Source of the DNA: Promethearchaeum syntrophicum
GTDB lineage: Archaea; Asgardarchaeota; Lokiarchaeia; Sigyniarchaeales; Promethearchaeaceae
Direction: 5' to 3'
Length of the DNA: 32,000 nt
Assembly (NCBI RefSeq): GCF_008000775.2
Contig: NZ_CP042905.2
Location: 2,460,001-2,492,000 of the forward strand
Part shown: positions 23,816-32,000 of the stretch, in pieces
Layout: every line of letters starts with the position of its first letter
Position numbering within the stretch: position 1 is the stretch's first letter
Program-made: the position numbers and the translations under genes
Notes under the pieces: generated by a model
The model's input: only the letters and a program-made list of their open reading frames with translations
Told to the model about the DNA's origin: nothing
The model's database searches: none

Positions 23816-25075
23816 TTATTTATCTTTGATTGCCATTTTATATCGTCCTAAAGGTCTGATATTTGCGATATTTATTTTATCTATATCTCCTATATCTTTA
23901 TATGTCATTGGAATAACCACTGATTCATTTCTTTTTATATTTGGAATAATAGCAAAAGTAATTAATTCATTATTATAGAACTCTTTAATATTTTTACTTG
24001 CTTCTTCTGACTCTTTCTCTTGATTTTTTATATCTTCTTCTTTCTCAGATCCAATACTATATACTTCTTTACAATTGCTATCTTCAAGATTTTTAATCGA
24101 TGTTTCTATACTCCCTTCTTCATCTATATTTTTATATTTTACGCTCAAATTATTCGTTTTAATAGAATATTCAGGTCTTAATATATCGATAGTATCTTTT
24201 GGATTTGCATTTACACTTCCATGATGAGATACTTTATATAGATTACAACCTTCAATTTCTTCATTTTCAATTTTTCCCCATCCCGTTTCCTCAAGATCTC
24301 CTGGAAAAATCGCCATAAATGGTTTTTTTTTGCCATTCTCCTTGTTCTTATTAGTTTGATCATTATTTCTTGAGAAAGATAATTGCATCACTAAAGAAGT
24401 ATTATTTTTATTATATTTATCAATAGAATAGAAATCTGTAGTTAATTCTTTAGAAAACCCAACTTTTTTGTAAAATTTATCTCCTTCGCTTAATTTTACT
24501 CTAAAATTTCCTCTTAAATCATTATTTGGTCCAATTACTCTAAGTTCAGTTATAGATTCATTATTTTCAATTGTAATTTTATCATTAAATTGTGGAAATT
24601 TTAGTTGATTTTCTGCTTGAGCATCAATTAATAATTCATAATATTCACCAGAAATACTATCTGTAATATATTCAGTAATCCAAATTTCTGGTATTTTACT
24701 TTTTATTCCATTTTTTTTAGAATGTTCTAATAAACTCTCTATTCCCGAAAAATGATCATAATGAGGATGAGAAATTATAATTAAATCAATTCCGCGATTT
24801 TCTATATCATAATTTTCAATAAATTTTGTAAATAATTTTGAAGCATTTTTAGTGCAATCAATTATAATGTTTGTATATTTATGTTTTGATTTTGATTTTG
24901 ATTCTTGTTCTGATTCAGGTTTGGATTTTTTTTCTCGATCTCTTAATGTATTACCAGTAATATTTCCAGGAATTTGTAAAAAAATACAATCTCCTTGCTT
25001 AGGATTTAGTATATTAATAAATAAAACATCATTCTTGTTTTCAAAAATAAAAGCATTTCTCATTTTAATTCCCAT
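23816..25075 (-). CDS. Metallo-beta-lactamase-fold hydrolase, ComEC/Rec2-type MBL domain (possible nuclease)
   Basis: Motifs seen:
- GDCIFLQ
- IIISHPHYDHFSG (HxHxDH, encoded at 24752-24769)
- YKVSHHGS (encoded at 24215-24226), the HHGS signature typical of the ComEC-type MBL subgroup
A Lys/Ser/Glu low-complexity insert of about 30 aa follows the first strand motif. There are no transmembrane competence-channel domains. Confidence 0.75.
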   Translation of the reverse strand: MGIKMRNAFIFENKNDVLFINILNPKQGDCIFLQIPGNITGNTLRDREKKSKPESEQESKSKSKHKYTNIIIDCTKNASKLFTKFIENYDIENRGIDLIIISHPHYDHFSGIESLLEHSKKNGIKSKIPEIWITEYITDSISGEYYELLIDAQAENQLKFPQFNDKITIENNESITELRVIGPNNDLRGNFRVKLSEGDKFYKKVGFSKELTTDFYSIDKYNKNNTSLVMQLSFSRNNDQTNKNKENGKKKPFMAIFPGDLEETGWGKIENEEIEGCNLYKVSHHGSVNANPKDTIDILRPEYSIKTNNLSVKYKNIDEEGSIETSIKNLEDSNCKEVYSIGSEKEEDIKNQEKESEEASKNIKEFYNNELITFAIIPNIKRNESVVIPMTYKDIGDIDKINIANIRPLGRYKMAIKDK

Positions 25076-25120
25076 TTTTTTATTGCATTAATATTCGATT
25101 TAATTTTTTAATTGAAATTT

Positions 25121-25156
25121 ACTTTTTTCTTTACTTTTTTCTTCACTTTTTTCTTC
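25121..25156. repeat. 3 x 12-nt tandem repeat in the intergenic spacer
   Basis: acttttttcttt / acttttttcttc / acttttttcttc at 25121-25132, 25133-25144 and 25145-25156, between the 373-aa gene stop (25185) and the MBL gene start (25075). Confidence 0.8.
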
Positions 25157-25184
25157 ATCATCACTATTAGATTCTTTTTCTTTG

Positions 25185-30020: not shown

Positions 30021-30695
30021 TTACTCCTCAAAAAAATCTTGTATTTCTTCTCGAGTTTCTTCATCCAATAAATTCAGTTTAATTTTAGATTCGTCATCTT
30101 GATTATCATTATCACTCTCATTATCTCCATCTTCAAGTAATGTTAAAGGTTGTTCGTTTGGAGAGGACATAATAGTAGATGACATTGCATTCGGAACAGA
30201 ACTCGATACTTGTAAACTACCACTTTTTCTTTTCCTGATAATTTTTGCTAGTTCTTTATTTCCTTTAAGAATTATATTATATCTCAAATCAAAATCAATG
30301 CCATCTTGAAAGGATTGAAAAGTATCACTATCTAGTCTTGCTTGCTGAGAGATTAAATCTTGAAGTGTTTGCTTAGCTCGATTCCATTTATCTTTTAATC
30401 TTTTATGTTTATTTTCCCATAAATCCCGTCTTTCTTCTTCAGATAATTCAGGAAAATCATATTCAAAAATTTCTTGGGAGAGTTTTGGATTTCCCCTAAA
30501 GGGATAAAGAGTATCTTCTTTACGTATTGAAAATAAAACATCGTCATATAACATTTCTTTCAAATTATAAGCGGAATTTAACTCATAATTTTTATTTTTA
30601 TGACTAAATTTTAAAATGTGATCACTCATCTCAATAAGATCTGCATAAACTCTAACGATTTTCTGATTAATGAATTCAAACCATGAAATTTTCAT
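30021..30695 (-). CDS. Hypothetical protein (224 aa) with basic coiled-coil-like centre and acidic C-terminal tail
   Basis: ATG start with GAGGA 7 nt upstream. It has a central charged helix-like stretch (EERRDLWENKHKRLKDKWNRAKQTLQDLISQQARL) and an acidic tail (EDGDNESDNDNQDDES...EETREEIQDFFEE). No family recognised. Confidence 0.55.
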   Translation of the reverse strand: MKISWFEFINQKIVRVYADLIEMSDHILKFSHKNKNYELNSAYNLKEMLYDDVLFSIRKEDTLYPFRGNPKLSQEIFEYDFPELSEEERRDLWENKHKRLKDKWNRAKQTLQDLISQQARLDSDTFQSFQDGIDFDLRYNIILKGNKELAKIIRKRKSGSLQVSSSVPNAMSSTIMSSPNEQPLTLLEDGDNESDNDNQDDESKIKLNLLDEETREEIQDFFEE

Positions 30696-30751
30696 ATTTT
30701 TTTCCTCTTAAGCAATATTCTTTTTAAATTTTTAAAACTTGAAAAAATGTT

Positions 30752-31978
30752 TTATTTAAGTGTTACATCAAAACCTTTATTTTTTTTAGCACTTTTCGAT
30801 TCAGACTCGAGAACATGGTCTAATTTATCAGGATTCATGAACAAGGAAATCTTATTAGCAATTTTTTCGTAATTTTCCAGACCGAATCCTTTGTAATATA
30901 AATCAAATACTTTTTCTGGTGAGGCTACATTACTAAGTGATTCACTTAGATGTTTCTTTATTTCTACAGTGCTTTCTAATAGTGCATTTTCAACTTGCAA
31001 TCTTCTTATAGTTTCAATTCTTTGTGCTAATGAATATTCATCGAGAACATTTCCTTTTCCTAAAACAGAATCAACTAATATTTGGTCGGTTTTCATTGAA
31101 GTAGAAAAAGTATCGAGTATAATTCCGTTTACCCCATGATCAATCCGTGCCTTTAATATATCATCATAATTCCCTTTTTCTTTTTCATTTTCTTTAATTC
31201 GATCTAAAACATATTTATAAAATGGTTGTGAATTAAACCTATATTTTCCAGTTGGAACATCATCAGTTCCTGGCATCATAATTGGTTCAATTACATTAAA
31301 TGGTCGATTTCGATAATCAAGGACGTAGCTAAAATTCTCAAATATTCTATCTTTTATAATTTTTCGAATTTCGCTACATAATTTTAAATCATAACCATCT
31401 CTAAAAATAGAATTGATAAGAGAATCAATTTCATGGATTGGAACCTCTTTATAATCTTGACTAAATCCAGTTCCATAAGCAATTTTTACATCGGTTAAAT
31501 GAATTATTGATATATATTGCTGATACATTTCTCTAAATACATAATTAACTACTCGATTTTCATTTGGGTTCTGAATTTCGCGAATGGAAAGTTCTTCTTC
31601 TCCTTCTTCACGTTCTTCACTTACATCTTGAGTAATAGAATTCTCTCTTGATTGGTTTTTTTGCGATGTATGATTTCCCATACTTTTTGAAATAGATTTA
31701 ACCGAATTTTTACGATTTTCTGAAAAACCAGCTGATGCTCCTGCTTCAACACCCACTGATGCAGACACGGGCCCCCATCCACCACTTGCACTAGCTGATG
31801 CACTAGCATATACTTCAGTTGTTCTTTGAGATTCAGAACTAGCATTTAGCTCTCCTTCTAATTCCTTTTGGAACGAGTCAGAAGATTCAGTATTTAAATT
31901 TTCTAAAACTGATGTAGATGTGTTTTTGGTTTTTTTTGATGTACTCCATTTTTTCATACGAAATTGAGTTTTCTCCAA
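30752..31978 (-). CDS. Hypothetical protein (at least 408 aa) with Ser/Ala/Gly/Val alternating hairpin-like segment; N-terminus uncertain
   Basis: Long ORF. The track start is TTG 31978 and an ATG follows at 31957 (MKKWSTSKK). The frame has no stop up to the window edge, so the gene may start beyond 32000. No family recognised. Confidence 0.55.
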   Translation of the reverse strand: MEKTQFRMKKWSTSKKTKNTSTSVLENLNTESSDSFQKELEGELNASSESQRTTEVYASASASASGGWGPVSASVGVEAGASAGFSENRKNSVKSISKSMGNHTSQKNQSRENSITQDVSEEREEGEEELSIREIQNPNENRVVNYVFREMYQQYISIIHLTDVKIAYGTGFSQDYKEVPIHEIDSLINSIFRDGYDLKLCSEIRKIIKDRIFENFSYVLDYRNRPFNVIEPIMMPGTDDVPTGKYRFNSQPFYKYVLDRIKENEKEKGNYDDILKARIDHGVNGIILDTFSTSMKTDQILVDSVLGKGNVLDEYSLAQRIETIRRLQVENALLESTVEIKKHLSESLSNVASPEKVFDLYYKGFGLENYEKIANKISLFMNPDKLDHVLESESKSAKKNKGFDVTLK

Positions 31979-32000
31979 AGGTAATAATGAGAATGTATCA

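Follow-up and report, generated by a model that had tools for sequence, protein, structure and literature searches.

A ten-gene cassette in the Asgard archaeon MK-D1 that may encode an undescribed conflict or toxin-delivery system

Ten co-directional genes in MK-D1

The archaeon MK-D1 (Ca. Prometheoarchaeum syntrophicum) serves as the model for the archaeal ancestor of eukaryotes and lives only in tight association with other microbes. To our knowledge, little has been learnt of the means by which Asgard archaea attack their neighbours, defend themselves against them or manipulate them. We analysed a 32,000-nt stretch of its genome (the window), which covers the 3' two-thirds of a cassette of ten co-directional genes (g1-g10, 14.6 kb, DSAG12_02791-02800; Table 1). 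From the sequences of these genes and of their relatives we tentatively propose, with somewhat less than even confidence, that the cassette could be an undescribed inter-organismal conflict or toxin-delivery system of a polymorphic-toxin-like kind.

A first reading of the letters of the window (the sequence-only reading) had described an orphan cassette of six minus-strand open-reading frames (ORFs), the first of them open at position 32000. The six ORFs, the gaps between them and their ribosome-binding motifs are all as that reading gave them, but the unit is larger. A 21,254-bp Logan contig from run DRR199588 (L001), found through its 1117-amino-acid (aa) protein, is 100% identical to window positions 22602-32000 (a 9.4-kb overlap); it completes the open ORF to a full length of 1347 aa and adds four co-directional genes before it, which makes ten genes rather than six. 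Products of DSAG12_02792 to _02800 are all labelled 'hypothetical' in an exact-sequence look-up, and each of these proteins stands alone or nearly alone in its own 90%-identity cluster. Only the last gene had been matched to a known family, and this holds: curated libraries recognise none of the other proteins, g1-g9 having no credible match in PADLOC, PHROGs or NCBIfam. The search of PADLOC that had been suggested returned defence models for g10, a metallo-beta-lactamase (MBL), alone and nothing credible for the nine other proteins, whose best values were E 0.001 (g1, to a Cas6 model) and E 0.95 (g8). The cassette is nonetheless less of an orphan than had been thought, as g5 has bacterial relatives at 161 loci, and diverged homologues are known elsewhere for five of the six cassette proteins encoded in the window.

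The genes form the tightly coupled operon that had been described. Intergenic gaps from the g10 side to the g5 side are 109, 12, 2, 61 and 56 nt, and the spacing within the upstream group g1-g4 is -1 to 31 nt. The junction before the 373-aa g9 reads TAA-GGTGA-AATAATA-ATG, that before the 1117-aa g8 reads TAG-TT-ATG, and GAGGA precedes the ATG of the 224-aa g6 by 7 nt. ORFs of 1117 and 1347 codons at 27% guanine-plus-cytosine (GC) content exclude a chance origin. At the 5' side of g1 lies a 478-nt intergenic stretch of 21% GC, beyond which are ferredoxin and aldehyde:ferredoxin oxidoreductase genes, and at the 3' side a convergent ORF stops 35 nt from the stop codon of g10. The cassette has 26.6% GC compared with 31.6% in its flanks, the individual genes ranging from 24.7 to 29.5% and the neighbouring genes from 28.6 to 35%. 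DRR199588 is a gene-expression dataset of MK-D1 (Imachi et al. 2020, PMC7015854, Data availability), and a single contig built from these RNA-sequencing (RNA-seq) reads covers the entire ten-gene unit. This fits transcription across the whole cassette without proving it, and a single polycistronic transcript, for which RNA-seq had been named as the check, is therefore consistent with the contig but not established by it.

Table 1. Positions of the cassette genes, of features within them, of neighbouring genes and of related Lokiarchaeial loci
Feature	Sequence	Position	Strand	Length	Locus tag or remarks
g10	window	23816-25075	-	419 aa	
g10, alternative start	window	25063	-	415 aa	
g9	window	25185-26306	-	373 aa	DSAG12_02792
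g8	window	26319-29672	-	1117 aa	DSAG12_02793
g8 modules	g8 protein	A1 aa 22-242; B1 373-553; A2 626-794; B2 970-1107			acidic linker 580-640
g7	window	29675-29959	-	94 aa	
g6	window	30021-30695	-	224 aa	DSAG12_02795
g5, part in window	window	30752->32000	-	C-terminal 415 aa of 1347-aa protein	DSAG12_02796
g5, full gene	L001	4878-8921 (to equivalent of window position 34795)		1347 aa	
g5 signature strand TFSLLPLEKT	window	31967..31996	-		start of conserved core; bacterial consensus TFSLLPGEKT
g5 hairpin-like motif EVYASASASASGGWGPVSASVGVEAGASAGF	window	31724..31816	-		alternating Ala/Ser; within Gly/Ser/Thr/Asn-rich loop
g4	outside window			333 aa	upstream of g5, co-directional
g3	outside window			238 aa	upstream of g5, co-directional
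g2	outside window			273 aa	upstream of g5, co-directional
g1	outside window			319 aa	upstream of g5, co-directional
Alpha-2-macroglobulin homologue	window	10472-16603	-	2043 aa	MG2, bait region, A2M, TED, bMG10
Large surface protein	window	17525-19513	+	662 aa	paralogue of the next; no Pfam match
Large surface protein	window	19952-23197	+	1081 aa	no Pfam match
Truncated third surface-protein paralogue	window	23400-23780	+		tail = 61-aa ORF 23595-23780; BLASTP 9e-12, 2e-10
Sulfur-relay fusion	window	5047-7536	-	829 aa	
WD40 beta-propeller	window	2007-2837	+	276 aa	
L005 cassette	GCA_001940655.1 (Asgard genome of 2017 set)				g5-like (contig end), 216-aa double g7, g8-like 1454 aa, 78-aa gene, MBL, g9-like, second MBL
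L005 opposite-strand neighbours	L005	12136-15514	-		CBASS-like SMODS + ThiF/E1 + 182-aa trio
L086 cassette	GCA_040961035.1				g5-like (cut), 241-aa double g7, g8-like 1518 aa, 403-aa protein, MBL, AAA_33
L086 neighbours	L086	11949-17760			two CHAT/Peptidase_C25 proteases + AAA_33 kinase-like gene
L087 cassette	third contig				g8-like gene, 316-aa gene, MBL
L087 leucine-rich-repeat protein	L087	6191-7177	+		after cassette MBL

g5 belongs to a bacterial family with variable toxin partners

The part of g5 that lies in the window first found five homologues of ~630 aa without a Pfam domain. A scan of one genome per species for the pattern TFSLLPGEKT gave 161 confirmed loci, 80 of which were kept (L006-L085); all 80 are bacterial and they come from at least six phyla (Actinomycetota, Bacillota, Bacteroidota, Cyanobacteria, Proteobacteria, Chloroflexota, Acidobacteriota and others). 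Members share an N-terminal motif G.AP.L.YN.P..T, a variable middle and the core blocks TFSLLPGEKT, RVLNFVFRQ and LLGQGEALDCYN, the first of which is almost invariant among 41 aligned members. A hidden Markov model (HMM) built on 40 bacterial members finds two matches in g5, at the N-terminal motif (aa 81-181, 1e-6) and at the C-terminal core (1e-100; domain envelope aa 728-1304, conserved from about 880), and g5 is a full-length member of this family. Larger bacterial members (850-1140 aa) carry Big_7, Big_13, PKD or Laminin_G_3 domains in the stretch that separates the N-terminal motif from the core, and the slot of these immunoglobulin (Ig)-like or lectin domains is occupied in g5 by a coiled coil of ~600 aa (aa 230-830, heptad periodicity z = 8.8). 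The bacterial family has no match in Pfam, NCBIfam, PADLOC, PHROGs or PDB sequences, and a search of the literature found neither a description of it nor a mention of the MK-D1 locus tags.

Against each of the bacterial members the core of MK-D1 g5 scores 130-192 bits, and against the two other Lokiarchaeial copies (see below) only 69 and 27 bits. This closer relationship to the bacterial proteins points to inter-domain exchange or replacement of a module within an archaeal frame. Exchange of modules in this way is a common trait of conflict genes.

A profile search of the PDB with g5 gave nothing significant. For the 415 aa encoded in the window, an AlphaFold2 (AF2) model from a nine-sequence multiple-sequence alignment reached a predicted local distance difference test (pLDDT) score of 43, and 58 sequences were used instead; the resulting model has a mean pLDDT of 67 and reaches 80-93 over most of residues 135-400. 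The loop that bears the hairpin-like motif is disordered in this model (pLDDT below 50), and a related motif, (E/x)A(E/x)A..WGxG..AK(V/I)SGG, recurs in bacterial members. As for a beta-barrel pore-forming toxin, g5 has no match to one in Pfam and its modelled fold has none either.

Neighbouring gene families are not conserved around the bacterial members, the largest cluster being present in 12 of 75 loci. What recurs is an arrangement. The gene immediately downstream (+1) is almost always co-directional, closely spaced and hypervariable, and Pfam searches of 54 such genes recovered Tae4 six times and TseH twice, as well as Peptidase_M23, Peptidase_M15_4, HH_signal (Hedgehog-N/LAS peptidase), YkuD and a GH5 cellulase. 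The recognised +1 domains are interchangeable cell-wall-degrading toxin domains. An N-terminal motif, NPW[DAES]..G or NS.KVL, is found in 21 of 63 +1 proteins and in 10 of 1201 other flanking proteins, a difference whose p-value is inflated by the post hoc definition of the motifs. Effector clusters c2, c13, c19, c26 and c27 have no known domain. The second gene downstream (+2) often encodes a signal peptide of the classical kind, and its overlap with the effector gene is then 4 or 16 nt. An overlapping signal-peptide gene after an effector is the usual layout of periplasmic immunity, and the +2 gene with a signal peptide is probably an immunity gene. In MK-D1 the +1 position of g5 is held by g6, which has no known domain and lacks the NPW..G/NS.KVL motif.

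Asgard-restricted proteins and related Lokiarchaeial loci

Following g5, the order of g5-like, g7-like, g8-like, g9-like and MBL genes recurs in the L005 (GCA_001940655.1) and L086 (GCA_040961035.1) contigs and partly in L087, at 20-30% protein identity among the cassettes and at 27 to 47% GC. The core of the cassette is kept as a unit in Lokiarchaeia. Comparison of gene order in relatives, one of the checks proposed for the window, thus finds the genes linked and the flanks different (SMODS and ThiF/E1 genes in one case, CHAT proteases in the other), and the surroundings of the L005 and L086 cassettes are like defence islands. On both contigs the g5-like gene is cut by the contig end (position 1 in L005, position 3 in L086); that two independent assemblies end within this gene suggests repeats or strain heterogeneity in a coiled-coil or variable region. 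On L087, the gene after the cassette MBL encodes a leucine-rich-repeat protein (LRR_4, LRR_8; E 1e-19 to 1e-24).

The giant protein g8 had been read as duplicated, and comparison at the HMM level bears this out: a two-module unit of ~530 aa is repeated in tandem, giving four homologous modules that jackhmmer detects among its relatives and a repeat that is invisible to BLASTP. An exhaustive search of 1.84 billion representatives gave only about seven real relatives, some with one A-B unit of ~530 aa (P0011, P0014, P0022) and some with two (P0007, P0010, P0012). The g8 module profile has no relative in the PDB, and viral and metagenome scans with g8 returned none. Immediately upstream of each g8-like gene is always g7, a small conserved domain, which is present as a tandem pair in the 216-aa (L005) and 241-aa (L086) proteins (jackhmmer 1e-15 to 3e-17) and whose profile has no relative among solved structures in the PDB. 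The slot after g8 is conserved too. It is taken by g9, a two-domain protein whose C-domain (aa 156-298) is homologous to a 255-aa protein of L005 (5e-12) and whose N-domain (aa 5-72) is similar to the N-terminal end of the L086 403-aa protein (35% identity, E 2e-5 uncorrected for composition); the g9 profile has no PDB relative. The suggestion that the 373-aa g9 is a single-module paralogue of g8 was ruled out, neither BLASTP nor jackhmmer seeing a link between the two.

The three proteins g7, g8 and g9 are confined to Asgard-like genomes, which would suit a different explanation, that the cassette is a lineage-specific housekeeping complex of Lokiarchaeia, serving the surface, protrusions or cytoskeleton, that recruited a bacterial-type surface protein. 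The long coiled coils, the large, repeated, scaffold-like architecture, the coverage of the locus by an RNA-seq-derived contig and the large surface proteins adjacent to it all speak for such a complex. Against it, the exhaustive search gave very few and highly diverged relatives, the flanks vary between genomes and the composition is island-like, and the greater closeness of the MK-D1 g5 core to bacterial than to Lokiarchaeial copies indicates module exchange; we consider this explanation quite improbable.

g1, g6 and the genes between g1 and g5

The first ~79 aa of g6 are shared with g1 (BLASTP E 7e-5; jackhmmer 3e-32 over g6 aa 3-79), and the C-termini of the two proteins differ. That of g6 is low-complexity and acidic; g6 has zero matches in curated library scans and was not found in the other Lokiarchaeial loci. 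That of g1 contains a retropepsin-like stretch, LIDTGAQ (DTGA) followed by LLIGMDFW, which scores 18.6 bits against Pfam RVP, below the cut-off of 20.7. UniRef names g1 'Peptidase A2 domain-containing'; its PDB profile search gave nothing significant, the only matches being DDI1 retropepsin domains at E 0.64. Among the remaining upstream genes, g2 has an N-terminal zinc ribbon, and g3 is the one cassette protein with transmembrane (TM) segments.

g10 is a predicted stand-alone metallo-beta-lactamase

The last gene had been assigned to the ComEC-type MBLs from its motifs, and the assignment is sustained. It scores above the Pfam thresholds for Lactamase_B_2 (29.6 bits, cut-off 27) and Lactamase_B (28.7 bits, cut-off 22.7) and carries SHPHYDH (HxHxDH), PGD (GD) and KVSHHGS (HHGS), and the HxHxDH, GD and K..HHGS positions are kept in five archaeal cassette MBLs (g10 and four orthologues). 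A 379-aa MBL paralogue in L005 has HQDIDH in place of HxHxDH. Searching the PDB with a profile of the five archaeal MBLs gave ComEC MBL domains as the nearest solved relatives (9ic4, 2e-13; 30bt, 1e-11; 9vc6, 2e-9), followed by the phosphorylcholine esterase CbpE/Pce (2e-8) in a full-length alignment. It is not ComEC/Rec2 proper, scoring 16.9 bits against TIGR00361 (cut-off 190) and having zero TM segments. On this evidence g10 is a putative ComEC-type MBL-fold hydrolase, stand-alone and soluble. The full-length alignment with Pce/CbpE means that its substrate may not be DNA but a phosphodiester of another polymer. A metagenome scan with the cassette MBL returned generic MBLs only, without the cassette partners.

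The cassette MBLs also match four PADLOC models at 1e-10 to 1e-17: LmuA, RTasMBL, PDC-M48B and the Avs1a MBL. As these are effector models of Lamassu (LmuA), of defence-associated reverse transcriptase (DRT) systems (RTasMBL), of PDC-M48B and of Avs1a, they would favour a cassette that acts as an anti-virus abortive-infection defence, in which g8, g7 and g9 would sense the virus and the MBL, as a nuclease, together with a membrane-perturbing module derived from g5 would kill or arrest the cell. The CBASS-like SMODS/E1 pair and the CHAT proteases adjoining related cassettes agree with this, as do the island-like lower GC and the patchy distribution. It is hard to reconcile with the nine other proteins, which lack a credible PADLOC match, and no NTPase, STAND, SMC or reverse transcriptase partner is found in the cassette; the NCBIfam model 6A-MBL gives g10 only 29.6 bits (cut-off 220). 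The cell-wall toxins, signal-peptide partners and Ig/lectin domains of the bacterial g5 family moreover point to other cells rather than to self-killing, and we judge a defence of this kind unlikely.

Tests for a viral or mobile origin

No terminase, portal, capsid or integrase gene and no tRNA/att site was found around the cassette, and the flanks thus give no sign of the ordinary provirus cargo that such genes would have signalled, as had been pointed out for this window. PHROGs gave only MBL matches and weak ones for g2 and g4 (E ~0.007), with no virion hallmark family. Relatives of the g5 family and of g8 were not found among 2.9 million IMG/VR contigs, a search of 50,697 INPHARED phage genomes with P0028, chosen to represent the bacterial family, gave no match, and a plasmid search with the archaeal g5 core found no match. 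Provirus or phage cargo was rejected as the leading explanation, there being no hallmark genes, tRNAs, virion-type PHROGs or IMG/VR or INPHARED relatives. An HK97 capsid fold for the g5 core was likewise rejected: Foldseek matches in the PDB were all sub-threshold (E 0.5-8, prob <= 0.05) and were not reproduced in BFVD.

The cassette could still be cargo or a structural module of a virus or mobile element, for example with g5 as a diverged capsid-like shell bearing a scaffold-like coiled coil and g1 as the maturation protease. That the top Foldseek PDB matches, non-significant as they are, are HK97-fold capsids would fit this, and so would the long N-terminal coiled coil of g5, the retropepsin-like g1, a GC content below that of the flanks and a truncated surface-protein paralogue at the 3' end. 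The negative searches above (hallmark genes, PHROGs, IMG/VR, phage genomes and capsids in BFVD) all count against it, and the genes that accompany the bacterial family are toxin genes and not those of virions; of the explanations that we considered, this one has very little probability.

Genomic surroundings

An alpha-2-macroglobulin homologue is encoded 7 kb from the cassette, with a signal-peptide-like N-terminus and an intact thioester GCIEQ at aa 1240; judged by its domains, it is a putative complement-like protease trap in an Asgard archaeon. Between it and the cassette lie two paralogous large surface proteins, each of which begins with a signal or anchor and has a TM segment and a KRK tail at its C-terminal end, and the larger of which has about five tandem repeats of ~175 aa, as read off the translation. 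A truncated third paralogue abuts the 3' end of the cassette, with ~115 aa of similarity in frame and no gene body upstream, and is possibly the boundary of a rearrangement or an insertion. Archaeal alpha-2-macroglobulin (A2M) genes have been reported to sit amid surface proteins and genes common to polymorphic toxin systems (Makarova et al. 2021, PMC8416519), so that an A2M and repeat-rich surface proteins near the cassette provide a setting that fits a conflict function.

Elsewhere in the window, an 829-aa protein joins pyridine-nucleotide disulfide oxidoreductase, rhodanese, TusA and DsrE-like domains into an unusually complete sulfur-relay fusion, and the best matches of a 276-aa WD40 beta-propeller, whose gene adjoins one for AdoMet decarboxylase, are eukaryotic-type WD40 families.

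A possible system of conflict and toxin delivery

If the cassette is indeed an inter-organismal conflict or toxin-delivery system, the archaeal operon could be an elaboration of the bacterial carrier-plus-effector principle. In this case g5 would be the component for surface binding and delivery (the 'carrier'), g1 and g6, with a shared head and a variable tail as in bacterial effectors, would be candidate cargo or adaptors, and the MBL would act as a phosphodiesterase or nuclease effector. The proteins g8, g7 and g9 may form an Asgard-specific scaffold or regulatory complex, and g3, as the only membrane protein, could anchor that complex or give immunity. Possible targets are bacterial partners, other archaea and viruses. 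The sequence-only reading had likened the parts to the sensor or scaffold plus effector logic of conflict systems; the conflict element gains from the tie of the g5 family to polymorphic toxins, from the similarity of the MBL to defence MBL models and from the SMODS/E1 and CHAT neighbours, and no evidence was found for a 'sensor'.

Several observations weigh against a conflict function. Both this function and the role of the bacterial protein as 'carrier' or translocator of a cognate effector are read from gene context only, and none of the orphan proteins received a fold assignment; the AF2 model of the g5 core has no significant Foldseek match in the PDB or BFVD. The candidate membrane-inserting hairpin that had been picked out in the window is conserved in outline as a motif, but its beta-amphipathic moment is above shuffles in only 3 of 41 members, which is not significant, and its insertion into a membrane is hypothetical. 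No recognisable toxin domain was found downstream of g5 in the archaeal operon, and no signal peptide or known secretion component in the cassette, where g3 alone has TM segments. Cassette proteins other than g5 have no relatives beside bacterial family members, and the bacterial logic may therefore not transfer to the archaeal operon. MBL enzymes have housekeeping roles too. The synteny comes from three to four contigs, two of which end inside the g5-like gene and short of g1-g4, and the L001 contig, though assembled from RNA-seq, could stem from DNA carry-over.

A bolder version of the conflict proposal, which we hold to be doubtful, is that the TFSLLPGEKT family is the carrier of an unrecognised delivery route that needs no known secretion system and is shared by many bacterial phyla and Asgard archaea, so that the cassette would be a machine with which MK-D1 acts on its neighbours. 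Such a route would join a module for receptor binding to a translocating core, on which an interchangeable effector docks; the Lokiarchaeial form would have gained an MBL effector and giant proteins found only in Asgard archaea, and would target bacterial or archaeal partners or competitors.

Were the conflict or delivery function true, this would be the first candidate multi-protein apparatus of its kind defined in MK-D1, from a cassette in which nine of ten proteins are 'hypothetical'. The findings also bear on bacteria: in the genomes of Gram-positives, Gram-negatives and cyanobacteria, a widespread family without a curated model accompanies swappable cell-wall toxins as their fixed partner. 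It is likely a new route for interbacterial antagonism, and culturable Paenibacillus, Flavobacterium, Chryseobacterium and Streptomyces carry such modules. The MK-D1 g5, nearer to bacterial than to Lokiarchaeial copies, would be an actual example of conflict modules exchanged between the domains of life.

Comparison with known systems

The closest parallels are polymorphic toxin and effector-immunity modules such as those of the T6SS, or type VI secretion system, with Tae4 and TseH. The bacterial g5 family has the same layout of a conserved gene, an effector and a signal-peptide gene, and the archaeal g1 and g6 likewise share an N-domain and differ in their C-termini. The conserved partner, however, is not VgrG, Hcp, PAAR, Rhs, LXG, CdiA, MuF or another known trafficking domain, and the phyla that contain the bacterial family include some with T6SS or the type VII secretion system (T7SS) and some that lack them. 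The archaeal operon differs further in having no recognisable toxin after g5 and in its four additional Asgard-only proteins.

With the MBL domain of ComEC/Rec2 and the MBL modules of Lamassu, DRT and Avs1a, the cassette shares the HxHxDH...GD...HHGS motifs. Unlike ComEC, the cassette MBL is a stand-alone protein of 350-470 aa without a competence channel, and the alignment of g10 with Pce/CbpE is just as good and spans its full length. The partners that define Lamassu, DRT and Avs (LmuB SMC-like protein, reverse transcriptase and STAND NTPase, respectively) were not found in the cassette.

VARTIG/A2M neighbourhoods (PMC8416519) resemble the cassette as accessory loci of archaea in which variable genes come downstream of one for a large protein, an organisation like that of polymorphic toxin systems; a thioester A2M and Ig/FN3-like surface proteins are also encoded at 0.6-13 kb from the cassette. 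The sequences are unrelated: VARTIG is Thermococcales-specific and centred on hypervariable Ig domains, whereas the archaeal cassette is centred on g5, g8 and the MBL and has none.

A-B and pore-forming toxins (anthrax PA, aerolysin) offer a functional analogy only, in that an Ig/lectin module, a core with a hairpin-like loop and an N-terminally docked enzyme partner could correspond to their parts. The family has no Binary_toxB, aerolysin, ETX_MTX2 or fold match, and the archaeal cassette has no signal peptides. No known system accommodates the cassette, and the general kind to which we tentatively refer it, that of conflict or polymorphic-toxin-like modules, is already known.

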